Shown here: piece by piece, positions 1 to 17,286 of the stretch | How positions within the stretch are numbered: the first letter of the stretch is position 1 | Layout of the letters: each line of letters opens with the position of its first letter | IMG/VR virus record: IMGVR_UViG_3300046513_000171 | Reading direction: 5' to 3' (one strand) | Source: an uncultured virus (IMG/VR IMGVR_UViG_3300046513_000171) | Lineage: Duplodnaviria > Heunggongvirae > Uroviricota > Caudoviricetes | Length of the DNA stretch: 22,544 bases | Program-made: the position numbers and the translations under genes | Notes under the pieces: generated by a model | Database searches by the model: none | What the model was told of the DNA's origin: nothing | The model's input: the letters and a program-made list of their open reading frames with translations, nothing else

Positions 1-313
1 GCCAGTCCGTCATGCCCGTAGTCTTCTCCGCTTCCTTGAGCGCGGCGTCATAGTCATCGAACGGGCCTTCGAGCGTCAACCCGTCGAACGCATTGCCGTA
101 CGCAATCACGAACTGCGGCACGCGTGTGTTCTGCTTCTCGAAGTACGCCTCGATGTCGGCGATGCGGTTGCGCATCTCTTCACGATCCTCGTCGGTGTAT
201 TGGTGGCACTCACCGCGCTCCATGTTGTCGAGGTCTGCCTTGAGCGTAGCCAGCAGCTCGCTCTCGATATAGAAAGCGACCGCCGTGTCGTCTGCAAAGT
301 GCTTGTACATCAT
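1..313 (-). CDS. Hypothetical phage protein, truncated by the window edge (MMYKHFADDTAVAFYIESELL...)
   Basis: Not in the ORF track. ATG at 313 follows palindrome plus GAAGGAG; frame is open to the window start; acidic protein-like translation. Confidence 0.8.
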   Translation of the reverse strand, partial: MMYKHFADDTAVAFYIESELLATLKADLDNMERGECHQYTDEDREEMRNRIADIEAYFEKQNTRVPQFVIAYGNAFDGLTLEGPFDDYDAALKEAEKTTGMTDW

Positions 314-348
314 GTCTCTCCTTCGGAAATTTCCGATTGGTGCTGCGG

Positions 349-627
349 TTAATCGCGCAAAACCTTCTGCGCCTTGTAGATCCACGCGCCGCGCTCGTGC
401 ACGGTGGTAGCTTCCTGAACAAGCTCGCGAAGTACCTGGTTATCTGCCGTGAGCTGATTAATCTGCTCGTCTCGTGTGTCGCGACCTTCCTTGCGCATGC
501 GCTCACGCAGGTGGAAGAAAAGCTCGGTGCGGTTCGCTGCATCTGCCGCGACGTTTTCGATAAACCACCACAGCGCTTGCGCGAGTGCCTGGCCGTCGAG
601 GTATGCCTTGGTCTGTTCGGTGTTCAC
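349..627 (-). CDS. Hypothetical phage protein, 92 aa
   Basis: GTG start after palindrome plus GAAGGAG; tiles between two palindrome copies. Confidence 0.85.
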   Translation of the reverse strand: MNTEQTKAYLDGQALAQALWWFIENVAADAANRTELFFHLRERMRKEGRDTRDEQINQLTADNQVLRELVQEATTVHERGAWIYKAQKVLRD

Positions 628-655
628 TTCGGTCTCCTTCGGAAATTTCCGAAAA

Positions 656-916
656 TTACTGCTGGTTCAGGTAATCCAGAATGCAGTGCTTCGCCGCGCG
701 CATGTCAGGCTCGGGCGTGTTGTAGCTCATGCTGAAGCATTCGAGATCCGTCGCTGCGAAGTGCGGCGCAGCCTTGATATTGATCGTGCGTGCGCCACGC
801 TGCCACTCGAAATACACGCCGTCGTTGGAGGTCGTGAAGTACAGGTACTCATGACCGTTGCGCTTGACGGTGCGCTCCAGGTTGATGTGGGCGTACCTCA
901 CCTTGGGTTTTTTCAC
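656..916 (-). CDS. Hypothetical phage protein, 86 aa
   Basis: GTG start after palindrome plus GAAGGAG; tiles between two palindrome copies. Confidence 0.85.
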   Translation of the reverse strand: MKKPKVRYAHINLERTVKRNGHEYLYFTTSNDGVYFEWQRGARTINIKAAPHFAATDLECFSMSYNTPEPDMRAAKHCILDYLNQQ

Positions 917-956
917 TTCGGGCTCCTTCGGAAATTTCCGATTGGTGCTGCGGTTG

Positions 957-1295
957 TTACTTCCAGAGGTGCTGCACCGTGACGATCAGGCCGACCATCG
1001 CGATGCCTACGATGTACAGCTTGTTCGTCAGGCGCTGCTCGATACCGTCGACGTGTGCCTTGAGCAAAGCAATGTCGGCCTTCAGATCAGATCTGGCCGC
1101 AGCCAGGTCTGCTTTCGTCGCGGCAATGTCGGCCTTCAGATCGGTCTTGAGCAGCGCCACGTCAGCCTTCGTCGCGACTGCGTCCGTCAGGCCCTTGTTG
1201 AGCGCGGTCACCAGGATCTCGGCGCCGCGCTCGGTCATGCCGCCCTCAGACGTGAGCTGCTTGATGAGTTCGTGTGTGTCGTTGAAAACGGGCAT
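957..1295 (-). CDS. DUF1640/CCDC90-like coiled-coil protein with C-terminal membrane anchor, 112 aa
   Basis: Start moved to ATG 1295 after TAAGGAGA; N-terminal DTHELIKQL..GMTERGAE, repeated ATKAD(V/L), C-terminal hydrophobic LYIVGIAMVGLIVTV. Confidence 0.8.
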   Translation of the reverse strand: MPVFNDTHELIKQLTSEGGMTERGAEILVTALNKGLTDAVATKADVALLKTDLKADIAATKADLAAARSDLKADIALLKAHVDGIEQRLTNKLYIVGIAMVGLIVTVQHLWK

Positions 1296-1305
1296 GACAG
1301 TCTCC

Positions 1306-1515
1306 TTAATCAACCGCGCGATGCACAACCTGCGTACCCACCGGTTTGCCGTCGATCATCTTCACGTCGGTCTCAGCCAGCGTCACGCTGACCATGTGGT
1401 GCTTCGACTTCGGCGTTTTGAACTTGACCAGCGCCGCGACCTTGGCGTCGTAAAGCGTGTTCGCGTAGATCTCCGCGCGCTGGCCGTTGTGCGAAAAAGC
1501 GATATAGCCGTTCAT
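1306..1515 (-). CDS. Hypothetical phage protein, 69 aa (MNGYIAFSHNG...)
   Basis: Start moved to ATG 1515 after palindrome plus GAAGGAG. Confidence 0.85.
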   Translation of the reverse strand: MNGYIAFSHNGQRAEIYANTLYDAKVAALVKFKTPKSKHHMVSVTLAETDVKMIDGKPVGTQVVHRAVD

Positions 1516-1540
1516 CTTGAACTCCTTCGGAAATTTCCGA

Positions 1541-2245
1541 TTAATGCTGCTCGACGATACTGCCATCAATGCGCACGACAGCGGCTACGTCCAGTTCGCT
1601 GTACTCCTTCGTGCACTGGTCCTCAGCCTCTTTCGCGCTCTTTGCCCACAGGCCGCGATACCAGCGCGTCTGGGCCACGCCGTTCAACCCGAACACACGC
1701 CAGAACTCCACGCGCACGAGCAGGTCTTCGTCGAGCGTAGTGGCTGTGCCGTCGTGCCATCCTGAAACCAGACCATCTTCATCGATCTTGCACTGGGAGC
1801 AGCCGTACGTCACGCGGCCGTCCTCGCTGGATACGGTCAGGATCTCGAACAGGTTCATCGACCACACGCCCGTCGTGCGCACCCTGTCCCCCACCTCGAA
1901 CTGCGGGCAAGGCTTGAGTGATGAGATATCGACAGGGAACGGGTTTCTGACACCCACCTTCACGCTGCGCAGCTGCGGCAGGCCGGCGTACATGCCGACC
2001 ACGGTCACGATCAGCCGGTCGTAGCTCATCATGGGCGGCACGTATATGGCCTTGCGGTGCGCGCCGAACGGGTCGAAAGTCGTGTTGACCGTGTGGACTA
2101 CCGTGCCGTTGTTGACGTTGGACCAGCACGCGCCTTCGTCCTCGCGGAGCACGGCAAATCCTTCACCACGCTTGATCCACACACGATCGTCCATCGGCAC
2201 TGTGAAGTGATCGCCTTCGACGAGTTCAAAGAACTTCAGTTTCAT
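1541..2245 (-). CDS. Hypothetical multi-module phage protein, 234 aa, with SH3/KOW-like FEVGDRVR motif
   Basis: ATG after palindrome plus GAAGGAG; the TAA stop abuts the next palindrome. Confidence 0.85.
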   Translation of the reverse strand: MKLKFFELVEGDHFTVPMDDRVWIKRGEGFAVLREDEGACWSNVNNGTVVHTVNTTFDPFGAHRKAIYVPPMMSYDRLIVTVVGMYAGLPQLRSVKVGVRNPFPVDISSLKPCPQFEVGDRVRTTGVWSMNLFEILTVSSEDGRVTYGCSQCKIDEDGLVSGWHDGTATTLDEDLLVRVEFWRVFGLNGVAQTRWYRGLWAKSAKEAEDQCTKEYSELDVAAVVRIDGSIVEQH

Positions 2246-2281
2246 TCTGTTCTCCTTCGGAAATTTCCGATTAGTGGTTGG

Positions 2282-2731
2282 TTACGCTTTCTCGCGCGCT
2301 GCAGCGAGTGCGGCCTTGGTTGCCTCGGACTTCTCCTTGCACTCGGCAGTCAGTTGGGTGTACACGCCGCCGTCGATCGCATACACATCACACAGGAAAG
2401 CCATCTGATGCACGATCAGGCGGATTGCTGCGTCATTGCGCACGTCCATCGTGTCGCCGTTCTCGCCGCGCTGGATCTGGTTGATACAGTGCACCAGCGA
2501 GCGCGCCACGCCGCTCAGATTGCCCGCCCCGGCCTGGATACCAATCGCATCGTTCCAGCGGTTGGAGGCGAGCACGTTCATGTCCTGCACGCCCGCCGTG
2601 AACGACTTCAGTCCCGGCCCTTCGAATGTCTGCACGGCAGGGCTCAGGATCTGGCGCACCATCTCGTGCGCTGCGGCATGTGATTCGGCTTCGAAAGTCA
2701 GTGCGATGTTCAGTGTGATCTGCTTGCTCAT
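2282..2731 (-). CDS. Hypothetical phage protein, 149 aa
   Basis: ATG after palindrome plus GAAGGAG; fits the tiling of the cluster. Confidence 0.85.
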   Translation of the reverse strand: MSKQITLNIALTFEAESHAAAHEMVRQILSPAVQTFEGPGLKSFTAGVQDMNVLASNRWNDAIGIQAGAGNLSGVARSLVHCINQIQRGENGDTMDVRNDAAIRLIVHQMAFLCDVYAIDGGVYTQLTAECKEKSEATKAALAAAREKA

Positions 2732-2759
2732 GATGGTGCTCTCCTTCGGAAATTTCCGA

Positions 2760-2957
2760 TTAATGAATGACCCGCTGGCAGTCGTGCAGCTTCAGAATGA
2801 AGCTCACATCCTCCCAGTCGAAGTCCTCGTTGATGTGATAATGCGAGCCCTCATGCAACTCGCATTGGTAAATCACCCCCGCTGACACCAGCGCCTGCGC
2901 CTCGTCATCATCCAGTACGCAAGGCACGGCGTCAGCTTCCAGAATCACTGCTGACAT
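2760..2957 (-). CDS. Small acidic hypothetical protein, 65 aa
   Basis: ATG 2 nt after the upstream stop; TAA abuts the palindrome at 2746-2759. Confidence 0.75.
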   Translation of the reverse strand: MSAVILEADAVPCVLDDDEAQALVSAGVIYQCELHEGSHYHINEDFDWEDVSFILKLHDCQRVIH

Positions 2958-2959
2958 CG

Positions 2960-3265
2960 TTACTTCGCAGCGAGCTGGCTGTCGTTGTTATCGATGTGCA
3001 CCCATGCCGGCCATTCCGCCTTCGCCGATGCCATGCTCGGCTGCTTCGGCATGTTGTCCTTGTAGTACTTCTCGCGCTCGACCGGGTTCATCGTCTGCGA
3101 GTTCGGAAAGTTTCCGAGCTGCGCCTGACCATAGCCATTCGCGCCGCCGTAGCTCGAACTCGATGCGGCCGCACCCGTGCCGTTGCCACCCGCCGATGCA
3201 CCACTGCCCGCAAATGCGGGCGCTGTGGCAATGAGAAGAAGCGCGGTAATCAGATACTTTTTCAT
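2960..3265 (-). CDS. Secreted/periplasmic small protein, 101 aa
   Basis: Sec-type signal peptide MKKYLITALLLIATAPAFA followed by a Gly/Ala/Ser-rich segment; AAGGGG upstream. Confidence 0.8.
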   Translation of the reverse strand: MKKYLITALLLIATAPAFAGSGASAGGNGTGAAASSSSYGGANGYGQAQLGNFPNSQTMNPVEREKYYKDNMPKQPSMASAKAEWPAWVHIDNNDSQLAAK

Positions 3266-3304
3266 TTTGAACCCCTTGGATTGCGTTATTGACTACAGGA
3301 TTAA

Positions 3305-3460
3305 CTACAGGAAAGGCTGCGGATGGACCAGCACGGTGAGCACCGCCGCAGCGACAGCGACCACCGTTACAAGCAGAGCCACGCACGTGCGCGCCGGCCA
3401 CCGCATCAGCGAGAGCAACACGAGCAACAGGACGAGCGGATTAGTCACGAACCGGGTCAT
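3305..3460 (-). CDS. Small hydrophobic membrane protein, 51 aa (MTRFVTNPLVLLVLLSLMRWPARTCVALLVTVVAVAAAVLTVLVHPQPFL)
   Basis: Translated by hand; fills the gap in the minus-strand cluster; two hydrophobic stretches. Confidence 0.6.
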   Translation of the reverse strand: MTRFVTNPLVLLLVLLSLMRWPARTCVALLVTVVAVAAAVLTVLVHPQPFL

Positions 3461-3554
3461 TGTCTGTCAGGTCCATGCAGGAGAAGACGTAGTCGATGAC
3501 CGCCACCACTGAGCAGCAGCCGAGAATGGCTGCGACGCCGAAGAGAGTTTCCAT
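3441..3554 (-). CDS. Possible small membrane peptide, 37 aa (METLFGVAAILGCCSVVAVIDYVFSCMDLTDNDPVRD)
   Basis: Translated by hand; ATG 5 nt after the upstream stop; no clear SD. Confidence 0.45.
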   Translation of the reverse strand: METLFGVAAILGCCSVVAVIDYVFSCMDLTDNDPVRD

Positions 3555-3559
3555 GATGT

Positions 3560-4198
3560 TCAGAACACGAACTGGCGCAGGGTGCCGTTATCGAAGTAGT
3601 AAGCCGTGGTCACAGCCTTGTACTCGACAGCCGAGAGGACGAACACGGCGCGGTTCATCTCGCGCATCTTGTTCATCGCCTCGTCGGGCGTGAAGCCGGT
3701 GTACGACTCCACCACGGGCTCGATCGCAGCTGCGCCGTCTTCACACTCGCCGCGGTACAGGACACCCGTCACCACGTACGAGGCCGCCTTCACGATCTGG
3801 TGTTCGAACACGATGAACTCGAACTGGCCGCCGTTGATCTTGGCATTGACGCGCCACTGCTCGTTGCCCTGATAGCTGACGATCTCAGCCGTGTGACCGA
3901 TGCCGGGCAGGATTGTGAGGCGGATCATCTCGCAGGGCTCGAAGCGCTCGAAGCGCAGTTCGCGTTCTTCGGAAATTTCCGAAGCGGGCGCAGCGAGGTG
4001 TACGGTCTGGATGACCTGCTGTTCGCGCTCGAACGGCGTGACGAATGCAGCGCTGCTCATACGATGGGCGCTGTACTCACTGACCTTGCGGTAGTGAATG
4101 CCGGCCGCGACGAACGTGTTGTTCGTCGCGAGTTCGTGGAAGAGGCGCGTACCGGTCACGGCATAGCCCGCCGGCGCCATGATATTGGTGTGGGACAT
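3560..4198 (-). CDS. Hypothetical multi-module phage protein, 212 aa
   Basis: ATG after palindrome plus GGAG; contains an internal palindrome copy translated as SEISE. Confidence 0.85.
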   Translation of the reverse strand: MSHTNIMAPAGYAVTGTRLFHELATNNTFVAAGIHYRKVSEYSAHRMSSAAFVTPFEREQQVIQTVHLAAPASEISEERELRFERFEPCEMIRLTILPGIGHTAEIVSYQGNEQWRVNAKINGGQFEFIVFEHQIVKAASYVVTGVLYRGECEDGAAAIEPVVESYTGFTPDEAMNKMREMNRAVFVLSAVEYKAVTTAYYFDNGTLRQFVF

Positions 4199-4337
4199 GT
4201 GGGACTCCGTTCGGAAATTTCCGAAAAGGTTGACTGCGTTTTATGTGCTGTGCATCGATCGCTCTGTGTCGATCGGCGCACAGTTTGTCAGATTGAAACG
4301 CCAGAGTAAAGGCGTTTCGAGTCGAGGTGAAAACTGC

Positions 4338-5291
4338 TCATTCGGGTTTCATCTTGCGCTGCATTTCCTCCAGTGAGGTGAATTGGGAGAGCGCGAACTG
4401 CTGTGCGGCGTCGGGCGTTTGCTCCTTCTTTCTCGTGCCGGCCTCGAACAGGCGCTCCTGTACCTTTTTGGGCGTCTTCTGAAACCTGTGGCCCGAAATG
4501 TCCACCGCGTGCGCCTTGGCGTTGTCGGCCCACAGCTGCGCGTACGTGCGCCCGTTGTGCGCGGGCAGAAGCATCGCGTTAAGCGCCTCGGGGTTCCACA
4601 CGCGCAGGAGCAACACGAAGAAATCCGGCGTGATGACCGTGACGTGGTCATTGTTGCGCCCGCGCACACGCATGATGTGATGGCCCCAGCTCGGGTAGCG
4701 CTCCTTCACGGTACGCGACTGCATGCTGGGCGTGATATCGCTCACGGGTGGCAGGAACCGGCACACGTCGGCCCACGAAAGCCAGGGCGTGTCGTTCACG
4801 TACAGGATGCGCAGGGGTGGCGACTTCTCCGTGATCCACGCCGTGTAGTGAAAACGCGCCGTCTGCTTTTCATCTTCAGTCGGCAGTGCGGGCACATCGT
4901 CAAGCGGACCCACGGCCGGCGCGATGCCTCGAAGCGCGCCGTTCTTCGTCACGGGCATGCCGGGGGGCGGCGCCATTGTCGGAAATTTCCGAACCGTCAC
5001 CCAATCGTTGAAGAGGTTCCACGTGTCGTGGCCCTCGATACGGTTCTGCAACCACTGCATGACAAGCGGGTGGGCTGCAAAGCGCAGCGTCAGGCGCTCG
5101 TTGCCTGGGTTCGGTACGAGGGTCGTGAATTCCGGCGCGTATTTCGGGATCTGCGCGCTGGAGCTGGGGTTCAGGTTGAGCAGCTTGACCACGTCTGCGG
5201 CGCACCACATGAGCCCGAACTCGGGGTGGATATAGCAGCGAACGAGCGACGGGAGTTGGGAGCCGTCGTAAGGAAAAATCTCGGTAATCAT
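4338..5291 (-). CDS. Tandem BRO-N-like (antirepressor-type) DNA-binding protein, 317 aa
   Basis: Two BRO-N-like signatures, VRCYIHPEFGLMWCAADVVKLL and LRILYVNDTPWLSWADVCRFL, separated by a Pro-rich linker; AGGAGG upstream. Confidence 0.7.
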   Translation of the reverse strand: MITEIFPYDGSQLPSLVRCYIHPEFGLMWCAADVVKLLNLNPSSSAQIPKYAPEFTTLVPNPGNERLTLRFAAHPLVMQWLQNRIEGHDTWNLFNDWVTVRKFPTMAPPPGMPVTKNGALRGIAPAVGPLDDVPALPTEDEKQTARFHYTAWITEKSPPLRILYVNDTPWLSWADVCRFLPPVSDITPSMQSRTVKERYPSWGHHIMRVRGRNNDHVTVITPDFFVLLLRVWNPEALNAMLLPAHNGRTYAQLWADNAKAHAVDISGHRFQKTPKKVQERLFEAGTRKKEQTPDAAQQFALSQFTSLEEMQRKMKPE

Positions 5292-5597
5292 AATATTCGC
5301 TTAGCCCTCCTGGGCCGTCAAAAAGGTAGGCACCTCCCAGAAAGAGGCGCAGGGGAAAAACACGATCACACAGAAAACAGCGGGGTCATTGCCGGGAGTG
5401 ACACCCAAAAAAGCAGGGGCGGGAGGCAATGCGAATACTATACTCTATTAATATCAAAAGAATAATAATAATAGAGTCTCTATGTTCGTGTGTCGCTGTG
5501 ATCCGATCGATGTTATTTCGCTGCGCGGTGCCAGATCGCTGCGAGTTTCGGAAATTTCCGAACGTCGAATCGGCCGCAAACCCTTGCTGGTAGCCAA

Positions 5598-6013
5598 TGC
5601 GCAAGTCGTGCGCAAGTCGTGCGCAAGTCAGAGAGTGTTGCTGAAAATGAGACAATATGGGCGAGTAATGGCATTATTCGTGCGAAACGTGGTCCATTAG
5701 CGCGAATTTTGCAATTATGCGAAATGCTCAATCGTCTCACGGCCACCGCTATGGCACGAGTATTACGACATTACTCGTGTTGTTTTCACGCCACACCGCG
5801 ACTTGCGCAAAATCGCCTCTGACTTGCGCAAATTTGTGTCAATTGTTCGTGCTAAAGCACTAAAAAAGCACGGTCGGACTGCGCAAGTCGCGATTACATC
5901 CCGCTTACAAAAGAACAATCCACTCCGCTTTCGGAAATTTCCGAAACAAACCACTCAGAAATTGCCGGAAACGAAGGAAACGACTTGCGCAAAGCCAATG
6001 CGCAAGTCGTTTC
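5598..6013. repeat. Cluster of eight TGCGCAAGTC motifs in non-coding DNA (iteron/operator-like)
   Basis: Plus-strand copies at 5598, 5609, 5620 (11-bp tandem), 5880, 5999; reverse copies GACTTGCGCA at 5800, 5821, 5982; 15-bp perfect inverted repeat 5977-5991/5999-6013. Confidence 0.9.
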
Positions 6014-6016
6014 TTC

Positions 6017-6163
6017 TCATCGGACGCTGCACCAGACCACGCCCCACGCGCCGCCCAGGAGCACGCCCGTCACACACGCGGCCGCAATCACCCACACGGT
6101 GTGATCGCCGTGCACGACGTACGCGGCGAGCTTCGGAAATTTCCGAAACAGGGTGCGCTTCAT
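6017..6163 (-). CDS. Small membrane protein, 48 aa (MKRTLFRKFPKLAAYVVHGDHTVWVIAAACVTGVLLGGAWGVVWCSVR)
   Basis: ATGA overlap with the upstream stop; C-terminal hydrophobic helix; palindrome encodes RKFP. Confidence 0.65.
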   Translation of the reverse strand: MKRTLFRKFPKLAAYVVHGDHTVWVIAAACVTGVLLGGAWGVVWCSVR

Positions 6164-6336
6164 CGCCCACCCCGCGAGATGTAATGACCGGCGATGAGAC
6201 GCTGCGCCGTCTTGCGCGCCATGAACATCATCGCGTCGCGGCCCCATGCGGTTGACATATGGGGAACGGACTTCAGCTGTGACGCGAGCAGCATCGCGTC
6301 GTCGGACTTGCCCTGTGCGTGCGGGATGGTTTTCAT
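6160..6336 (-). CDS. Hypothetical protein, 58 aa (MKTIPHAQGKSDDAMLLASQLK...)
   Basis: Translated by hand; GGAGAGG upstream; ATGA overlaps at both ends. Confidence 0.65.
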   Translation of the reverse strand: MKTIPHAQGKSDDAMLLASQLKSVPHMSTAWGRDAMMFMARKTAQRLIAGHYISRGGR

Positions 6337-6410
6337 TGCGCCTCTCCCGCCAGTTCACGCGCCGCCACTTCGTCGCTGTTCTCCAGCGCATACACCAGGT
6401 CATCAATCAC
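6333..6410 (-). CDS. Small acidic peptide, 25 aa (MIDDLVYALENSDEVAARELAGEAQ)
   Basis: GTG start after palindrome plus GAAGGAG with the same geometry as the larger genes; stop overlaps the next ATG. Confidence 0.6.
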   Translation of the reverse strand: MIDDLVYALENSDEVAARELAGEAQ

Positions 6411-6462
6411 GTTCGGACTCCTTCGGAAATTTCCGAAAATACTACGTTGAAAATGGGCGGAT

Positions 6463-6741
6463 TTATGCCTTGCGCCCCCACAGGCGGATTTCACGCAATG
6501 CCAGGCACGCGAGACGGTCTACCTCGTCCAGCTGCGCGGGCGTGCCCTCCCACACGAGCACGAGCTGTTTCGCCTCATGCACGGACTGGCGGTTGACGGC
6601 GCGCATGTACACACGCCGCTCTTGCGCCTCACGCCGCGATACGTTGTAGATCGGTTCGCACAACTTAATGAGACGGTCGGCATAAATCTCGACCGTGCTG
6701 CGACCAACAAACACGGCGCGTTCGGAAATTTCCGAATTCAT
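6463..6741 (-). CDS. Hypothetical phage protein, 92 aa
   Basis: AGGAGGTGA SD; TGATG overlap with the upstream gene; palindrome at codons 3-7 (SEISE). Confidence 0.75.
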   Translation of the reverse strand: MNSEISERAVFVGRSTVEIYADRLIKLCEPIYNVSRREAQERRVYMRAVNRQSVHEAKQLVLVWEGTPAQLDEVDRLACLALREIRLWGRKA

Positions 6742-7202
6742 CAATCACCTCCTGGCAAGTGGCAGCACGCATACAAGGCGGCCGCCTGTTTGAGCAATAG
6801 CTGGCGCCGACTCGTGCGAATCGTGCGTTTGCCACTACTTGTGGTGACACGCTGAGACGTTATTTCATCGTCACCGCATCGCGCCGCCTTTTCGAGCAAT
6901 TCGGAAATTTCCGAACTGTAGTCATACCGGCCTGTCTCGCCGATGAGTTCATCCGTCAGCGCATCGCGCATCTCGACATACGCGCCGCCTTTCGGAAATT
7001 TCCGAAAGGCTGTCAGCGCCCGCTGTCTGTCCGCACCACGATATAGCGCGGACCACGAACCATTACCCGTGCGCCAGAAAACGCAGTAACGCGCACGGTG
7101 CACGTCAAACGGACGCGCATGCCCGTACACTTTCGGATACGCGCCGCCAACCTGCGAACCGATCGCAGAGAGTGCGCGCGACACGTCGCGCAAGTCTTCC
7201 AT
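6741..7202 (-). CDS. Hypothetical phage protein, 153 aa, with two internal palindrome copies
   Basis: GGAG SD upstream; palindromes translated as RKFP and SEISE. Confidence 0.75.
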   Translation of the reverse strand: MEDLRDVSRALSAIGSQVGGAYPKVYGHARPFDVHRARYCVFWRTGNGSWSALYRGADRQRALTAFRKFPKGGAYVEMRDALTDELIGETGRYDYSSEISELLEKAARCGDDEITSQRVTTSSGKRTIRTSRRQLLLKQAAALYACCHLPGGD

Positions 7203-7275
7203 AGTCAGAACTCCGAACGATCAGACGATAGCGACGCGCGCTATCGTGTGTACGCTCAGTGAGTCAAGGCAAAGT

Positions 7276-7299
7276 GGCGCGCGGTACGTACCGCGCGCC
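7276..7299. repeat. 24-bp perfect GC-rich palindrome GGCGCGCGGTACGTACCGCGCGCC (possible terminator or processing hairpin)
   Basis: Directly visible, 14 nt after the stop of 7314-8102; second hairpin ACGATAGCG/CGCTATCGT at 7225-7247. Confidence 0.6.
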
Positions 7300-7313
7300 C
7301 GGCGATGAGTGGC

Positions 7314-8102
7314 TTACTCTGCATCGCCGGTTTGCGTGACAGGTGCGGGCAGGTCCACGCCGACAACGCTTGCAACACTGGCGCGCAACACGTTCAATTC
7401 ACCTGCCCACGCTGCGAGCGTATCGGAATCAAGCGAAGCGGCATTTACCGCAGCGTCGCTAAGCGCGTTCGCAATGATGCTCATACGGTCAAGCGTCGCT
7501 GCAATGTCAGCGGCGCGTGAAGTCGCTTGTGCTACTTGCTCAGCACGCGCGGTTTGCTCTGCATCCGGTGCGCCAGTCAGACCAACGTTCCCCGCGGGCG
7601 TGGATTCGACGGCGGCCTTTTCAGGGGCATCCTTCTTAGGCTGGAGGGCCTGGAGGGACGCAAACCCGCTGACGTTACGCAGGTCGGCAAGCTTGCCTGC
7701 TTCGATAGCCTTTGCGCACAGACGAAAAATCTTGAGCGCGTATTCACGGCGCTTGTCCTTCGAGTCTGCCCACGCATCGCGCACGATACCGCGCGCGGCC
7801 TCATCCCCCATATGCAGGAAGAGCGCGACGGACGACAGGAAGAACCGGCCCTGCGACGCTTCAAAGGCGTTCCCGTCCGCGATAAAGATATCGCGTGCTG
7901 TCGCCTCGTCCTGGAAGAGCGCTGCCACTTTGCCGACAGGTGAGAGAGCGCTGTAATGTGCGCGGGCATCACGAGGGAGTGCGGCGCGTACAGCGTCGAT
8001 TGCGGCATGTTCCGTGCTGACAGCGTGCGATGCTGCGACCGTACCGAACGTAGCGAAGACATTGTTGGCTTTGGCAACGACGTTAGCGGAAAGGGCTTTC
8101 AT
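7314..8102 (-). CDS. Hypothetical Ala-rich protein, 262 aa; first gene of the leftward cluster
   Basis: GAGG SD; long ORF co-oriented with the cluster. Confidence 0.8.
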   Translation of the reverse strand: MKALSANVVAKANNVFATFGTVAASHAVSTEHAAIDAVRAALPRDARAHYSALSPVGKVAALFQDEATARDIFIADGNAFEASQGRFFLSSVALFLHMGDEAARGIVRDAWADSKDKRREYALKIFRLCAKAIEAGKLADLRNVSGFASLQALQPKKDAPEKAAVESTPAGNVGLTGAPDAEQTARAEQVAQATSRAADIAATLDRMSIIANALSDAAVNAASLDSDTLAAWAGELNVLRASVASVVGVDLPAPVTQTGDAE

Positions 8103-8439
8103 GGTGAAACCTCACAAGAGAGAGTAGGGAAACGTCCCCAGGCGTCGCGCCGCTTGGCGCTACACATCTACTACAACAACGAACTACAGGACGAACAATA
8201 CCAGATTAATCGTGCTATTGATAATAACCTTAGATAAATTAAGGGTATTTCGTGTGCGTAGCTGCTGCGAAACGCAATGCACAATGGGGTTTTTAACAGG
8301 GTGTAACGCTTACTGGGTAAGGCTTAGTGCGCTTTAGCGTGGAGCGCTGCATTGTGCGATGCAACAATTAGTGTGTTACCGCACACAAGGGAGTGCCAGG
8401 GAGTAGGAAGGACGGGCAGACCGGTCGTGCGGCCGCACA

Positions 8440-8460
8440 GGGTGGCGTACCGTTTTTCGC
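8440..8460 (+). other. Candidate cos (cohesive end) site GGGTGGCGTACC followed by GTTTTTCGC
   Basis: Resembles recalled lambda (GGGCGGCGACCT) and N15 (GGGCGGCGTCCG) 12-nt ends; lies in the divergent intergenic region upstream of the terS-like gene; terminase is GpA-type. Confidence 0.35.
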
Positions 8461-8542
8461 CGACGGGCGCGCGGGGCCGGTAACCTCCCCCCTCCAAAAA
8501 AATTGCTCTAGAAAAATCCCCTAGCTTTCAATTTCATTACAC

Positions 8543-8571
8543 TTGACATTCACTCCCCATAAATCTACAGT
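8543..8571 (+). promoter_or_regulatory. Sigma70-type promoter TTGACA-17-TACAGT
   Basis: Perfect -35, 17-bp spacer, 4/6 -10, AT-rich upstream; expected +1 coincides with ATG 8578. Confidence 0.75.
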
Positions 8572-8577
8572 CTCGCC

Positions 8578-9024
8578 ATGAAATTCTCCGACGACAACCT
8601 GTTCGATGAAGAGCCCGAGCTGCACCGCGTCGATTCGCGTGCGCAAGGGGTGATCGACATGATCAAGGAGCTGTCCGCCGAGGACCAGCTGCTGGTCATG
8701 ATGGCCACGCGCGCCATGAACCCGGTGCGCGCCGAGGACATCGACCTCGAACAGGAGATCGCCGAGCAGCTGCGCGCGGCCCAGTTCCTGATGACGGAAG
8801 TGCTCACCAGCAAGGCCAACACGACCAGCAAGACGAGCGCCCTGTCGGCCGTCTCGCGCGCGATCAAGCAGCTCACCGACCTGCAGGCGAAGACGTACAA
8901 CATCAACCGGCTGCGCGCACTGGAGAAGGCTCTCGTGACGACGCTGCACGGCCACCCGGATGGCGACGCGCTGCTCGCGCAGTGGCGCTCGACGTTCCAG
9001 CGCATGGTCCAGGCGGGCGTATGA
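8578..9024 (+). CDS. Helical phage protein, 148 aa; possible terminase small subunit
   Basis: Strong GC3-biased ORF; size, helical character and position next to the cos-like site suggest TerS, but no diagnostic motif. Confidence 0.45.
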   Translation: MKFSDDNLFDEEPELHRVDSRAQGVIDMIKELSAEDQLLVMMATRAMNPVRAEDIDLEQEIAEQLRAAQFLMTEVLTSKANTTSKTSALSAVSRAIKQLTDLQAKTYNINRLRALEKALVTTLHGHPDGDALLAQWRSTFQRMVQAGV

Positions 9025-9227
9025 CGCGAACGATTCACAACTGGCGTGTCGACTTTGCCAATGACTACCACTTCGTCGTGGTTGGCGATCAGCGCGACCT
9101 CTCACGCTACCTGCGCGTCGCTCACGACTTCGGCCATACGAGGATCATCCGCGCGTGGCGCGATGACGCTCCCGTGGACCTGCTACTCGACTTCCACAGC
9201 TGCGGCGTAACGGTGACCGAGAGATGA
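9021..9227 (+). CDS. Hypothetical protein, 68 aa (MTRTIHNWRVDF...)
   Basis: ATGA overlaps with both neighbours. Confidence 0.7.
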   Translation: MTRTIHNWRVDFANDYHFVVVGDQRDLSRYLRVAHDFGHTRIIRAWRDDAPVDLLLDFHSCGVTVTER

Positions 9228-9427
9228 ACGAGACCGAACTCAGCCTGCAGCGCGGGCTCACCACCCCCGAAGAGACGCTGCGCTTCTATGAGCAGCTCGC
9301 GATCCTCGATGGCGACCACAAGCGCGCCAAGGGCCTCGCCGACCGTATCGCCGCCAACCATTACCGCGTCCTGCTCGGCGACGCGTTCTTCCGTCGCCTG
9401 CACAACACATGGACATCCGGCCTATGA
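9224..9427 (+). CDS. Hypothetical protein, 67 aa
   Basis: ATGA overlaps with both neighbours; GC3-biased. Confidence 0.75.
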   Translation: MNETELSLQRGLTTPEETLRFYEQLAILDGDHKRAKGLADRIAANHYRVLLGDAFFRRLHNTWTSGL

Positions 9428-9756
9428 CCAAGCCACCCAGCAAGCCCACCAGACGCCACTACCCGCCCCGCGCGATCGGCGTCATCTCGGTACCCATCGC
9501 CCTCATACGCAGCATTTCCGAGCGCACGGGCATCGCCGAGGACGTGGTGCGCGTGGTGCTCGTCACCGCCCTCGAAGAAATCAAGACGGCCGCCCGCACC
9601 ACGCGCGTGACCTTCCGCAACTTCGGCACGTTCCAGTCGACCACGTACAAGGGCACCACGCGCGCGATGCCCAGCGACCCGAGCACACCCATTACCTTTC
9701 CCACCCGCCGCCGGCTGGTCCTCAAATCCGTGTCAGAACCAGAGGCGGATCAGTGA
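9424..9756 (+). CDS. HU/IHF-like histone-like DNA-binding protein, 110 aa
   Basis: LIRSISERTGI...VTFRNFGTF...P..ITFPTRRRLVLK matches the HU/IHF pattern; start moved to ATG 9424 (ATGA overlap). Confidence 0.8.
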   Translation: MTKPPSKPTRRHYPPRAIGVISVPIALIRSISERTGIAEDVVRVVLVTALEEIKTAARTTRVTFRNFGTFQSTTYKGTTRAMPSDPSTPITFPTRRRLVLKSVSEPEADQ

Positions 9757-10367: not shown

Positions 10368-10444
10368 AGTCAGCATTGACACGGTTAACCTCCTATACTT
10401 CGTGGCGTAGTCCCCTACAACCCCACACGAACACCGGAGTAACC

Positions 10445-11113
10445 ATGCTGATAGCCGTCGCCACCCGCAAGGGCGGGGTGGGCAAGACCACTATTGCCAC
10501 CAATCTGGCCGTGCGCCGGGCGCAGGACTCGCCCGACGTCCACCTCGTCGATGCCGACCGCGATGAGTACGCGCACATGTTCGGACTGACGCGCCGCGAG
10601 AACAACATCACGCCGACCATCAGCCTGTCCAAAATGACGGGCAACATTTACCCCGACCTGATCGCCGCGCGCGCCGCGCACGAGACCGTGATCGTCGACG
10701 TCGGCGGCAAGCAGGCGCCCGAGATCGTCTACGCGGTGGGCGCCTGCGACGTGCTGGTGCTCCCGGTACGCGCCGGTCAGTACGACGCGTGGTCGCTGCA
10801 GGCTGCCGCGCGCATGGTCAGCGAGATGCGCGCGAACGGCAAGACCTTCCGCATCGTCCCCGTGATGAACGCGATCCCGCCGGAGAAGAACAGCTCGCTC
10901 ACGCGCATGATCGAGGCCGAGCTGAAGACGCTCACGGAGATCTTCGGCGAGCCCAGGGTGCGCATCGTCGAGCGCGTGGCGTTCGTGACCGCCTCGATCG
11001 GCGGCAAGGGCGTGTGCGAGCTGAAGCGCGGGCGCGACACGGCGTCGGCTATCGACGAGATGGAAGCGCTGTACCGGGAGGTGTTCGGTACCGTCGCGCC
11101 CGCGCGCGCGTGA
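10445..11113 (+). CDS. parA: ParA/ParF-type partition ATPase (type Ib, no N-terminal HTH), 222 aa
   Basis: Deviant Walker A KGGVGKTT at the N-terminus, LVDAD, VIVDVGG; start moved to ATG 10445 after GGAG. Confidence 0.93.
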   Translation: MLIAVATRKGGVGKTTIATNLAVRRAQDSPDVHLVDADRDEYAHMFGLTRRENNITPTISLSKMTGNIYPDLIAARAAHETVIVDVGGKQAPEIVYAVGACDVLVLPVRAGQYDAWSLQAAARMVSEMRANGKTFRIVPVMNAIPPEKNSSLTRMIEAELKTLTEIFGEPRVRIVERVAFVTASIGGKGVCELKRGRDTASAIDEMEALYREVFGTVAPARA

Positions 11114-11145
11114 TAACAGAAAACCCCCGTTTAAGGAGAATTTTT

Positions 11146-11412
11146 ATGACCAAGCCAGCAGCGTTCAGCGCGGTACCCGACGCGATCGAGCGGATGGCGC
11201 GCGAGGCAGCAGGGGAGAGCGAGGCGCCGACACAGGGCGGCCGCAAGCTCCCCGTGAAGGCCTCGACCAAGGCCATGAGCGTGAACATGCCCAAGGACGT
11301 CTACGACCGGCTGCGGGACTTCTGGAAGCTCACCGACATCCCCATGACCGACGTGATCGTGCAGGGGACGATCAAGGAGCTGGCCCGCCTGTCGAAAGAA
11401 CACGGCGTCTGA
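11146..11412 (+). CDS. ParG-like ribbon-helix-helix centromere-binding protein, 88 aa
   Basis: TAAGGAG SD; flexible N-terminus then AMSVNMPKDVYDRLRDF..TDIPMTDVI (RHH pattern); directly after parA. Confidence 0.8.
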   Translation: MTKPAAFSAVPDAIERMAREAAGESEAPTQGGRKLPVKASTKAMSVNMPKDVYDRLRDFWKLTDIPMTDVIVQGTIKELARLSKEHGV

Positions 11413-11862
11413 AACGCAACTAGCTGTCTGCCACCCCAAACGGGGACGAACAGACCGCTAGTTGCCTTTTCTGCAAAACCGCTTTTCAGGGGTAGGTGGT
11501 CCACCCGCGCCCGCCTGGGGACAGCCGGGTTGCCCACACTGGCGTGTGGACAATCGGCGAGCCGATTCCCCGCCTGACCACAGGCTCCCCACGAGCTTCG
11601 CCCTTCGGGCCTGACGCGCGCTTCGCGCTTGCCCCAGTGAGAGAGAAAGTCAAAATTCGAACCCCCGAAACCGTCGGTTAACCAACAATAAGAAAGGAGG
11701 TTCGTCCAGACCGCTGTAAGTCACTGTAAACGTTGGAAAATTCCGTCCCCGAAAGGGGTCACAGATGTCCCGAATAGGGGACACTGGAGTCACCATTGCG
11801 TAGAGGTGGATCAATGGTCTATAGTCCTGTCAAGGGACATCGACGTCCTTCTATGTGACAGG
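11413..11862. promoter_or_regulatory. Probable plasmid oriV / rep control region
   Basis: About 450 bp non-coding before rep; three imperfect palindromes GGG(A/T)C-N6-GTC(C/A)(C/T) at 11756, 11778, 11834. Confidence 0.65.
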
Positions 11863-15470: not shown

Positions 15471-15556
15471 ACCCCCTCATGATCGGCTGGTACCTGTACG
15501 CGATCTTTTTCACGCCGCGCCCGGTTCGCGACGTCCGTAAAACTGAGGACTCCTGA
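15467..15556 (+). CDS. Small peptide, 29 aa (MNPLMIGWYLYAIFFTPRPVRDVRKTEDS), translationally coupled to terL
   Basis: GGAG SD; ATGA overlap upstream, TGATG overlap with terL. Confidence 0.5.
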   Translation: MNPLMIGWYLYAIFFTPRPVRDVRKTEDS

Positions 15557-17286
15557 TGCCCAGCGGTCGCAAAGCCAACACCGAATGGGTGATGGATGAG
15601 TCGAGCCTGTTCGACCGCCTGCAGACGGCGGTCGGCACGAGCTTCTCGCACGACGCGGTCCCCAAGTGGATCGAAGAGAACACCTACATCAGCGGCAAGA
15701 ACTACAGCTTCGTCGACCACGAGTACCAGCTGAAGATCCTCGCCTCGCGCAAGCCCGAGCAGTACACGAAGAAGTGCTCGCAACTCGGGATCAGCGAGCT
15801 GAAGGTGCGGCGCGTGCTCTCGCTGTGCTACATGATCCCGCACTTCTCCGCGATCCTGACGCTGCCCACCTCGAACTTCGCCTCGATGTTCGCGAAGACC
15901 CGGATCGACCCGGTGATCCGCGAAAGTGAGCCTTTACGGGAGGCCGTCGTCGGCAACAACGACAGCACGGAGCTGAAGCAGATCGGCTCGTCACTGCTCT
16001 ATATCCGCGGCACGTTCACGCAGAACGCGGCGATCTCGGTACCGGCCGACATGCTGCTGCATGACGAGGTCGACTTCTCCGATCAGGACGCCCTCACCAG
16101 CTTCCAGTCGCGCCTGACGCACTCGAAGCTCAAATGGAAAATGAAGACGAGCACGCCGACCGTGCCGCGCTACGGGATCGACGATGAATTTGCGAACAGC
16201 AATCGCTGGTTTAATTTTGTCCGCTGCTGCCACTGCAACCACCAGTTCATCCCGAGCTACCAGGACCACGTGGTTGTCCCCGGCTTTCATGGCGACGTCT
16301 TCTCGCTGGACAAGACGAAGCTGCCACGCACGCGCTGGCGCGAGGCATACCTCGCCTGCCCGAAGTGCAAGAAGCGTCCTGACCTGAGACTCGACTTTCG
16401 CGAGTGGGTCTGCGAGAACCCGGACGAGCAGCACAACGCCGACGGCACGCAGCTCTCCCCTTTCGACGCGCCAGGCTTCATCAGCGTGCAGGATCTGCTG
16501 CTCTCGCGTACGGGCTACAAGCGGCTGACCGACTTCAAGAACTTCGGCCTCGGGCAGACCGACGAGGACGAGCTGAGCGGCATCCAGCAGGCCGACATCG
16601 ACCTCATGGAGATGGTCTACCTGCCGGGGCTCGTCGGCAGCGTGCTGGGCATCGACATGGGCACGACCTGCCACGTGTCGGAGTGCTACATCGACGCGGG
16701 CAACCACCTGATGCAGCGTCGCGTGCACCGTATCAACTACAAGGAGCTGGACGCCGAGCTGGACAAGATCGTCAAGCGCTGCAAGCCGATCGCGATGGTA
16801 ATGGACAGCCAGCCGTACACCGAGACGGTGTACCGCATGCAGCAGAAGTACAAGAACCTCTACGCGTCGGTCTATGTGAAGGCCAAGGGCATGCGGCCGT
16901 ACCGGATGCTCGACGAGGAAGAGGACCGGAGGGACGCCCTCTTCGACGAGCGGCAGATCAACGTCAACCGGAACATCGCGCTCGACTTCCTGATGGAAGA
17001 CATCCGCGCCGGCCTGATCGGCAACGACCCGATGCAACCTGACGAGGACCGGCAGGAGTTCCGCGACCACATGCGCGACATGCGCCGCGTGCGGCTGGCG
17101 GGCAACGCGAACGCGCCAGACACAGACGCGTACCAGTGGGTCAAGTCGAAGGTCGAGATCGACCACATGCACCACGCATTGCTTTATGCGTGGGTTGCCG
17201 CCAAGCTGCGCCTCGCCGCGCGCCCGGTGATCGCCGTGTCGAGCCTGGAGCTGATGAGCAAGCTGCGACTGAAGGCGCCGCTTTAA
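15556..17286 (+). CDS. terL: Terminase large subunit, GpA (lambda-like) type, 576 aa
   Basis: KKCSQLGISE (Walker A variant), LLHDEVD (Walker B), STPT motif, CxxC pairs, C-terminal nuclease GIDMG and DHMHHA. Confidence 0.92.
   Translation: MPSGRKANTEWVMDESSLFDRLQTAVGTSFSHDAVPKWIEENTYISGKNYSFVDHEYQLKILASRKPEQYTKKCSQLGISELKVRRVLSLCYMIPHFSAILTLPTSNFASMFAKTRIDPVIRESEPLREAVVGNNDSTELKQIGSSLLYIRGTFTQNAAISVPADMLLHDEVDFSDQDALTSFQSRLTHSKLKWKMKTSTPTVPRYGIDDEFANSNRWFNFVRCCHCNHQFIPSYQDHVVVPGFHGDVFSLDKTKLPRTRWREAYLACPKCKKRPDLRLDFREWVCENPDEQHNADGTQLSPFDAPGFISVQDLLLSRTGYKRLTDFKNFGLGQTDEDELSGIQQADIDLMEMVYLPGLVGSVLGIDMGTTCHVSECYIDAGNHLMQRRVHRINYKELDAELDKIVKRCKPIAMVMDSQPYTETVYRMQQKYKNLYASVYVKAKGMRPYRMLDEEEDRRDALFDERQINVNRNIALDFLMEDIRAGLIGNDPMQPDEDRQEFRDHMRDMRRVRLAGNANAPDTDAYQWVKSKVEIDHMHHALLYAWVAAKLRLAARPVIAVSSLELMSKLRLKAPL

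Follow-up and report, generated by a model that had tools for sequence, protein, structure and literature searches.

An invariant 14-bp palindrome marks the first-expressed leftward operon of a soil siphophage lineage

Introduction

What purpose is served by a short DNA word that a phage repeats, letter for letter, along one arm of its genome? The question is raised by 22,544 bp from an uncultured soil phage (IMG/VR record IMGVR_UViG_3300046513_000171; this whole stretch is referred to here as the window), DNA that turned up in 21 runs, all of them rhizosphere metagenome DNA contigs. A sequence-only reading of the window had drawn attention to exact copies of a 14-bp perfect palindrome, TCGGAAATTTCCGA (the 14-mer), in a 7-kb gene cluster, and had proposed that a repressor might silence the whole cluster through them. 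Dispersed exact phage palindromes have been in print for more than 10 years without a mechanism (the Cluster O repeats and the start-associated sequences [SAS] of Cluster K). The lineage studied here is an unusually clean case: 41 identical copies in two phages, strict confinement to a first-expressed operon with ArdA and takeover genes, two contexts for the repeat, and direct evidence of gene reordering and loss at its copies. We find that the 14-mer is a strongly selected cis-element that marks the whole first-expressed leftward operon, and we weigh how, and by what, it might be read.

The 14-mer is confined to one leftward operon

An exact search of the window gave 16 copies of the 14-mer, all of them within positions 323–7005, and zero elsewhere in the 22,544 bases, as the sequence-only reading had stated (Table 1). 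Base composition predicts 3 × 10⁻⁵ copies, and 0 of 100 dinucleotide-preserving shuffles of the window contained any match to the 14-mer. When up to two mismatches were allowed, only one extra site appeared (21535, two mismatches), which is unrelated.

We compared the window with a complete relative from IMG/VR (G002; 85,240 bp, CheckV 100% complete), whose terminase (TerL) is 92% identical to that of the window. Window positions 137–9744 align with G002 77,002–84,746 at ~70–80% nucleotide identity. The relative contains 25 exact copies, 25 of 25 in a single zone (63,396–80,866, ~17.5 kb), and zero in the remaining 67.7 kb; no other abundant repeat was found in it. The two phages together thus hold 41 exact copies, in which the centre as well as the arms is invariant (41/41). 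In neither phage does GGAAATTTCC ever occur outside the full 14-mer, and CCGAAATTTCGG, the other arrangement of the half-sites, has 0 occurrences in this lineage. Because the G002 zone is larger and the alignment places the window at its end, the window takes in just 7 kb, the promoter-proximal part, of a ~17.5-kb zone; the clustering reported earlier is real, and its 7-kb size was set by the left edge of the window.

All genes that carry or follow copies are on the minus strand, so that all copies share one direction of transcription, and copy density peaks promoter-proximally (10 copies in 3 kb). The 14-mer fused to the ribosome site is also present in two more IMG/VR fragments of the lineage. 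The 19-mer made of the 14-mer plus ribosome site is present in three IMG/VR records, all of this lineage, and otherwise gave 6 single matches in 185,579 bacterial species genomes and 23 single matches in the metagenome collection. The scarcity of these 19-mer matches favors the earlier view of a selected cis-element confined to one arm over chance or a host repeat. A literature search did not find the literal word, and phrase searches for similar phage elements gave no useful result.

The source phage is a novel siphophage of ~85 kb with ParA and a Rep-like gene, and its genes suggest a proteobacterial-type host group. Genes at window positions 1–8102 are leftward and, apart from weak matches (Pfam, PHROGs), orphans. 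Rightward genes start at ~8.5 kb with an HU-like protein, ParA and a weak RepL/helix-turn-helix (HTH)-like protein, followed by virion genes, terminase, portal and an S49 protease. In G002, for which the gene map is rough (100 proteins scanned, 77 against Pfam and 23 against PHROGs; 35 window proteins were scanned against Pfam), the plus strand encodes ParA, a clear Rep3 initiator and siphovirus structural genes (tape measure, tail fibre J). The promoter-proximal third of its long leftward arm is the motif zone, with orphans and ArdA, H-NS-like and NinX genes. The distal part of that arm encodes primase, DNA polymerase A, helicase, ligase, thymidylate synthase and SbcCD-like proteins, and offers 18 intergenic gaps of at least 20 nt with zero copies of the 14-mer. 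The gene content of the G002 zone bears out the earlier description of an early arm and shows it to be the anti-defence arm. The plasmid replicon that had been assigned to the element is plausible from ParA and the G002 Rep3, with the caveat that the RepL/HTH match in the window itself is weak and below cut-off.

Relatives outside the lineage are distant. The best listed TerL matches among cultured phages are ~30% identical, TerL identity to plasmid proteins is ≤27%, and a TerL alignment search gave just six loci (91–100% identical), with more distant relatives not found. Searches of window positions 1–7500 against cultured phages (megablast, blastn) gave a sole match, 127 nt of Pseudomonas phage Lana. 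The right-hand 22.5 kb of Lana, its early region, has the same gene layout and no dispersed repeat.

Copies occur in two contexts

Read on the minus strand, the window copies divide, as described before, into 8 at Shine-Dalgarno sequences, 6 in open reading frames (ORFs) and 2 in a 720-bp non-coding stretch. The 41 copies of the two phages fall into two classes. Those of class I (26/41) abut the Shine-Dalgarno sequence at zero gap, and the start codon follows 5–9 nt later. In the window the layout is TCGGAAATTTCCGA-AGGAG-N5-8-ATG/GTG, with AGGAG in seven copies and ACGGAG in one. The start-associated unit TCGGAAATTTCCGAAGGAG fits this class, 26 copies in all, and none of the remaining 15 is at a start. 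These class II copies (15/41) lie away from a ribosome site, 11 in coding regions and two per phage in non-coding DNA.

The two classes differ in the bases that flank the 14-mer. The class II form is a 16-bp palindrome, TTCGGAAATTTCCGAA, in 13 of 15 copies (T at −1 in 14/15, A at +15 in 13/15). In class I, base −1 is A in 19/26 and T in 7/26 and never G or C, base −2 is A or T in 24/26, and +15 is part of the ribosome site. The difference in A at −1 (19/26 class I versus 0/15 class II) is significant (Fisher p = 2.7 × 10⁻⁶). Upstream bases at class I junctions are partly conserved as a GCAGCA-like run.

Class II copies inside genes are read in two frames, as S-E-I-S-E and as R-K-F-P. Four of them in the window (3969, 4979, 6901 and 6992) lie 197–299 nt into the gene from its start, and three class II copies (window 6133 and 6722; G002 77992) are found in the first 30 nt of an ORF. 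Among four near-variants that occupy working positions, three alter the centre only, one of these by an inserted base.

The word is under selection

Eleven copies can be matched by position between the window and G002. Ten of these pairs are identical and one has a one-base difference, amid ungapped ±40-nt flanks that are 18–87% identical and early proteins that are 29–78% identical overall. The copy in the 317-aa gene encodes the same aligned residues (RKFP) in the window and in G002, in homologous proteins with just 29% identity. In-gene copies are also written in minority codons (share of the synonymous set: CGG 14%, AAA 18%, TTT 15%, ATT 16%, TCC 13%). Because matched copies remain identical within diverged flanks and proteins, and because minority codons are used, these comparisons show purifying selection on the 14-mer at the nucleotide level.

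Copies are sites of gene exchange

Homology between the window and G002 is broken into blocks, and 5 of 14 block ends lie within 11 nt of a copy, versus 6.5% expected (p = 0.0015). Of the shared cassettes, G002 has the order h,a,b,d,f and the window h,g,f,e,d,c,b,a. The strand is the same throughout; therefore, no single inversion can explain the change of order. Metagenome contigs also record losses. One contig joins 922 to 1522 (flanks of 417 and 478 nt), with the loss of two genes between two copies (957–1515), and another is without the gene 6463–6741. Contig joints whose shorter side was 21–35 letters were excluded as alignments of the repeat itself. Many gene junctions share the same ~20 bases, the site and the ribosome site together, and for that reason act as crossover points.

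Window 1–4300 and G002 74,000–78,600 have their shared early genes reversed cassette by cassette with strands kept, an arrangement for which several independent moves are needed. Integron cassettes were considered and rejected: the element is 14–16 bp and exact, unlike the long and imperfect attC, and no integrase family was found in the scanned proteins.

The same word in unrelated phages

The same 14-mer occurs within tandem arrays of 9-bp TTTCSGAAA or TCGGAAR units in non-coding repeat hubs of the unrelated IMG/VR phages G003, G005, G006, G008 and G009 (array loci L021, L027, L034 and L071 for G003, G005, G006 and G009, and L152:9650–9800 for G008). In four array records a small gene adjoins the array that, judged from its translation, is of the excisionase HTH type. 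Searches for a binder shared by the array-bearing phages and this lineage (blastp, phmmer) found none; the only common proteins were terminase, endolysin and a P-loop match. A shared host factor may lie behind both the arrays and the repeats of this lineage.

Comparison with known repeat systems

The element combines traits of the Cluster O repeats, the SAS, the stoperators and the T4-type promoter early stem-loops (PeSLs), and it fails a defining feature of each.

Cluster O phages contain 17-bp dyad repeats (TGTTCGG-N3-CCGAACA) that number >30 per genome, reach their highest density in a long leftward operon and are absent from host genomes (PMC4351075). The likeness extends to invariant inverted arms, dozens of copies, a leftward operon, location of many copies in short intergenic gaps, a coding fraction of about one third (here 11/41) and similar half-site letters (TTCGG...CCGAA). 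The differences are that the centre is a variable 3 bp there and an invariant 6 bp here, that the repeats are genome-wide there and limited to one operon here, and that they are not closely linked to translation starts there, whereas 26/41 are fused to a ribosome site here. The host group also differs, in that the genes of the present phage appear to be proteobacterial in type.

The SAS and extended SAS (ESAS) of Cluster K comprise a 13-bp asymmetric repeat that includes the ribosome-binding region, lies upstream of starts in many gene families, is kept across subclusters and is absent from the host (PMC3203893). Both systems place a short exact repeat just upstream of the start codons of varied genes. 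The SAS, however, is asymmetric and is itself the ribosome-site region, whereas here a symmetric word precedes that region and more than one third of the copies are not at starts.

Stoperators are asymmetric sites, oriented with transcription and present in both arms, that are bound by the immunity repressor. In Cluster A phages (L5 gp71) they are dispersed in many copies, often in short intergenic gaps, and silence whole regions by a block to transcription (PMC4351075, PMC3203893). The present element resembles them in its many dispersed copies of one short site (16 in the window, 25 in G002) and differs in that the 14-mer is symmetric and limited to a single operon; because it is a perfect palindrome, it cannot encode orientation. 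No immunity repressor was recognized among the scanned window and G002 proteins.

T4-type PeSLs are short conserved cassettes, each a sigma-70 promoter with a terminator stem-loop, that separate small, non-essential orphan genes; recombination from copy to copy shuffles, inserts and deletes these genes (PMC2839356). Gene shuffling between copies occurs here as well; the differences are the absence of a promoter, AGGAG instead of a T-run after the hairpin, the fusion to ribosome sites, and the presence of copies within genes.

Plasmids provide a further comparison. The KorB operators (OB) of IncP RK2 and the conserved upstream (CUP) repeats of IncN leading regions are scattered palindromes or control cassettes through which one regulator governs many genes, including anti-restriction genes that are briefly expressed on entry. 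As with these, the copies here are identical palindromes that are scattered, some of them far from promoters. The binders there are of the ParB or ArdK type, whereas none was found here in the scans of the window and G002.

How the word might be read

We tentatively favor, at a probability of roughly 0.4, the reading that the copies are docking sites for a candidate DNA-binding dimer, through which the operon as a whole would be controlled in the manner of a stoperator system. Each copy would be a double-stranded DNA docking site for one sequence-specific dimeric protein, encoded either by an early phage gene or by the host. Placed in series, the sites would control the operon as a unit, through serial roadblocks and silencing in the carrier state or through shut-off after an early burst. 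Within this packed operon the sites would occupy the only room left, the gap that separates a stop codon from the Shine-Dalgarno sequence of the following gene, and would be fused to the latter; where no gap is available, the site would be written into codons. The identical junctions double as crossover points, where orphan and anti-defence genes change order, enter or drop out. A dimeric reader of DNA is favored because of the distant in-gene and non-coding copies, the symmetric 16-bp form, the promoter-proximal density and the occurrence of the same word in arrays. For Cluster O, the published view is that the dyad sites are predicted to bind dimeric proteins (PMC4351075). The stoperator-like silencing proposed in the sequence-only reading still stands as the best single guess. 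If a single reader does control the operon, it would provide a handle for switching the early programme of the phage.

Several observations weigh against docking by such a factor. A DNA roadblock leaves the zero-gap contact with the Shine-Dalgarno sequence in 26/26 class I copies unaccounted for, as it does the A at −1 by which most class I copies (19/26) break the 16-bp symmetry. The near-variants altered only in the centre (3/4, one by an insertion) suit a hairpin loop better than a dimer with fixed half-site spacing. A promoter and terminator scan was at background (4 promoter sites versus 3.3 expected, none at a copy), so that classical operator action at promoters is not indicated. The zone genes gave zero binding-protein candidates against Pfam and PHROGs. 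The protein of the first operon gene (153 aa) was modeled with AlphaFold2 as three beta-beta-alpha units (predicted local distance difference test score [pLDDT] 72.5), and the model has no PDB fold match (best Foldseek E 0.02; best VIA Z 5.6). The HU-like protein has a syntenic counterpart annotated 'DNA binding protein' in Lana, whose early 22.5 kb has no such repeat.

The binders put forward by the sequence-only reading did not hold up. The BRO-N assignment of the 317-aa gene found 0 Pfam families even at E ≤ 5, no ribbon-helix-helix protein was detected by Pfam or PHROGs, and the 262-aa gene yields no sign of DNA binding. An SprT-like gene, a further candidate, is absent from G002, G003, G004, G008 and G009. 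In the ESM Atlas no family was found for the 262-aa protein or the 148-aa protein, the 262-aa protein alone and in a two-sequence alignment gave zero relatives among metagenome contigs, and PDB sequence searches for candidate binders returned nothing below E 0.04. The iteron-like repeats in the non-coding stretch differ by one base in all copies (GACTTGCGCA in the window, GACTTGTGCA/G in G002), and the Rep-type proteins differ as well (RepL/HTH-like in the window, Rep3 in G002). Because these repeats and Rep proteins differ between the phages while the 14-mer does not, the reader of the 14-mer would be conserved or host-encoded; it is probably not the specificity-determining replication or immunity protein.

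A second reading, which we judge possible but unlikely, is that the word acts as RNA. A 5–6-bp hairpin with an AAUU loop would form at the 5' edge of the ribosome site, in the early polycistronic transcript, and an RNA-binding protein or endoribonuclease of phage or host origin would repress, process or destroy the early messages in concert through it, by analogy with T4 RegA/RegB and coat-protein operators. The invariant AAATTT centre had been taken to point away from an RNA hairpin. That argument is not supported: folding predictions for 26 contexts give a 5-bp stem capped by an AAUU loop (mean stem probability 0.87, −4.9 to −6.8 kcal/mol), and invariant loops are normal in protein-bound hairpins. 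The RNA reading is consistent with the zero-gap register of 26/41 copies and the start codon 5–9 nt on, with the A/T-rich 5' flanks of class I and the single transcription direction, with the near-variants (3/4 loop-only) and with the three class II copies in the first 30 nt of an ORF. It would also account for base −1: A in class I keeps the first A of AAGGAG unpaired, and T in class II adds a U-A pair.

Other results count against action as RNA. The four window copies 197–299 nt into genes and the two non-coding copies at the iteron-like cluster would be useless as translation operators. Predicted accessibility of the ribosome site is unchanged by the word (0.51 versus 0.50 with a shuffled 14-mer, Wilcoxon p = 0.39), a result that led us to reject a hairpin that opens the ribosome site. 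The whole window gave zero Rfam matches at the gathering score, no RNA-binding or RNase domain was detected in the 100 scanned G002 proteins, and the copies, being identical, show no covariation. Hairpin promoters of the N4 type were rejected separately: no phage RNA polymerase was present among the scanned G002 proteins, the largest of which are the tape measure and tail fibres.

The DNA and RNA readings could be combined. The palindrome with its ribosome site would then be a standard plug for early-gene cassettes. One factor would read the word on DNA and also as a transcript hairpin, switching the anti-defence operon briefly on and then off, and by way of the identical plugs phages would exchange, rearrange and take up genes for anti-defence and host takeover, in effect an integron-like cassette system that needs no integrase. 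We regard this combination as improbable.

Rather improbable, too, is a pure junction element with no trans-acting reader, in which site-plus-ribosome-site junctions persist through homologous cassette exchange, which keeps them uniform. Gene order permuted without inversion, block ends at copies (5/14, p = 0.0015), the contig that lacks the genes at 957–1515 and has its joint at a copy, and the GCAGCA-like run, which suggests copying of whole junctions, all agree with it, and the PeSLs set a precedent (PMC2839356). However, in-gene copies have stayed fixed in rare codons despite drift to 29% protein identity, which is purifying selection on each copy and not homogenisation of the junctions. 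A crossover site is not required to be a palindrome, and the copies, unlike PeSLs, have no promoter or terminator (no T-run follows the hairpin).

Still less probable is a site for a host factor, in which TCGGAAA half-sites are recognized by a nucleoid or replication protein of the host, one that several unrelated phages of the same host group exploit and that here serves entry, protection or silencing of the first-entering arm. The presence of the same 14-mer in arrays of unrelated phages that share only the terminase, endolysin and P-loop match with this lineage, and its identity in two phages whose early proteins are 29–78% identical, are compatible with such a factor. The 0 occurrences of CCGAAATTTCGG in this lineage, though, point to a reader of the palindrome as a whole and not of its separate half-sites. 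H-NS nucleation, which a likeness of the word to a published high-affinity site and the H-NS-like gene of G002 might suggest, is a speculative further idea.

The least credible reading is a centromere, with the 16-bp palindromes as parS-like sites round a plasmid-prophage origin that are read by a ParA partner, on the model of the dispersed sites of N15 and chromosomal parS clusters: ParA in both phages, the Rep3 initiator of G002 and palindromes in and between genes, densest round the iteron-like cluster, fit it, but no ParB-type domain was found in 35 window and 77 G002 proteins (Pfam; a small non-ParB partner may exist), no family matches the small protein that follows ParA in G002, the 14-mer is constant where iteron-like repeats and Rep proteins vary, and at least 25 sites mostly in fixed register with ribosome sites are atypical and leave that register unexplained, so that the N15-like centromere of the sequence-only reading is not sustained. 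We know of no centromere with at least 25 sites mostly fused to ribosome sites in fixed register.

A single 16-bp oligonucleotide would serve as a test bed for what reads such words, whether they are read as DNA or RNA, and whether standard junctions drive the turnover of early and anti-defence genes.

Additional features of the locus

Coordinates of the copies and of associated features are collected in Table 1. An early promoter probably lies between the terminator-like hairpin and the start of the first motif-bearing gene (7202). The whole window contains zero tRNA genes.

Table 1. Copies of the 14-mer and associated features in the window
Feature	Position	Strand	Context
Copy 1, class I	323..336		AGGAG then ATG 313/310; minus-strand gene runs past left window end
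Copy 2, class I	639..652		AGGAG then GTG 627; gene 349-627, minus
Copy 3, class I	928..941		AGGAG then GTG 916; gene 656-916, minus; G002 homology block ends here; joint 922-1522 in metagenome contig
Copy 4, class I	1527..1540		AGGAG then ATG 1515; gene 1306-1515, minus; homology block ends here
Copy 5, class I	2257..2270		AGGAG then ATG 2245; gene 1541-2245, minus
Copy 6, class I	2746..2759		AGGAG then ATG 2731; gene 2282-2731, minus; abutted by stop codon of upstream gene
Near-copy with one extra central base	3103..3117		Inside lipoprotein-like gene 2960-3265
Copy 7, class II	3969..3982		In gene 3560-4198, 216 nt from start; S-E-I-S-E; within 18-bp palindrome
Copy 8, class I variant	4211..4224		ACGGAG then ATG 4198; gene 3560-4198; matches G002 78442 by position
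Copy 9, class II	4979..4992		In gene 4338-5291; R-K-F-P; same aligned position as G002 79291, proteins 29% identical
Copy 10, class II	5548..5561		Non-coding, one side of iteron-like cluster; matches G002 79856 by position
Iteron- or operator-like repeats GACTTGCGCA, eight exact copies	5598..6008	both orientations	AT-richer non-coding stretch inside zone
Copy 11, class II	5931..5944		Non-coding, within iteron-like cluster (exact repeats both sides); 18-bp palindrome; matches G002 80221
Copy 12, class II	6133..6146		Codons 6-10 (F-R-K-F-P-K) of 48-aa membrane-like ORF 6017-6163; matches G002 80445
Copy 13, class I	6423..6436		AGGAG then GTG 6410; 25-aa ORF 6333-6410; G002 counterpart 80560 with one mismatch
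Copy 14, class II	6722..6735		Codons 3-7 (M-N-S-E-I-S-E-R) of gene 6463-6741; gene absent from G002 and one metagenome contig
Copy 15, class II	6901..6914		In first early gene 6741-7202; S-E-I-S-E; matches G002 80762
Copy 16, class II	6992..7005		In gene 6741-7202; R-K-F-P; 18-bp palindrome; matches G002 80853
First operon gene, 153 aa	6741..7202	-	Two 14-mer copies written in
Leftward early operon of small orphan genes	2..7202	-	Home of every copy; continues past left window edge, extent as suggested by G002
Terminator-like hairpin	7276..7299	-	Behind 262-aa gene (7314-8102), just upstream of first motif-bearing gene; consensus scan only
HU-like protein	9409-9756		Passes Pfam cut-off; sole clear DNA-binding domain near zone
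ParA	10376-11113		Pfam/PHROGs; 3.4 kb from motif zone
Terminase	15556-17286		Pfam/PHROGs

Downstream of ParA, ~690 bp of the window (11114–11805) contain no convincing ORF by third-position GC; G002 has a 102-aa gene without a family after ParA instead. The iteron-like cluster looks like a group of origin or operator sites that differ in specificity between the window and G002 as the result of a switch. The leader of the 317-aa gene (5292–5480) is long and contains an AT-rich block and a terminator-like hairpin (5330–5350) just before the ribosome site, and could be an internal promoter or attenuator.

The ribosome site of ArdA has a variant copy with the centre AAACTT that is kept in both relatives (G002 66,929–66,942, L127; G004 3213–3227) and may be a deliberately weakened site.

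The family of the 153-aa protein has 11 members, 62–100% identical to the window protein, in all of which RKFPK and SEISEL are invariant. The most conserved stretch of its gene is the 91 bp between the two palindrome copies. After each in-gene copy (window 6901–6935 and 6992–7020) a similar AAGGCGGCGCG...ATG stretch follows in differing frames, a small internal DNA repeat larger than the palindrome.

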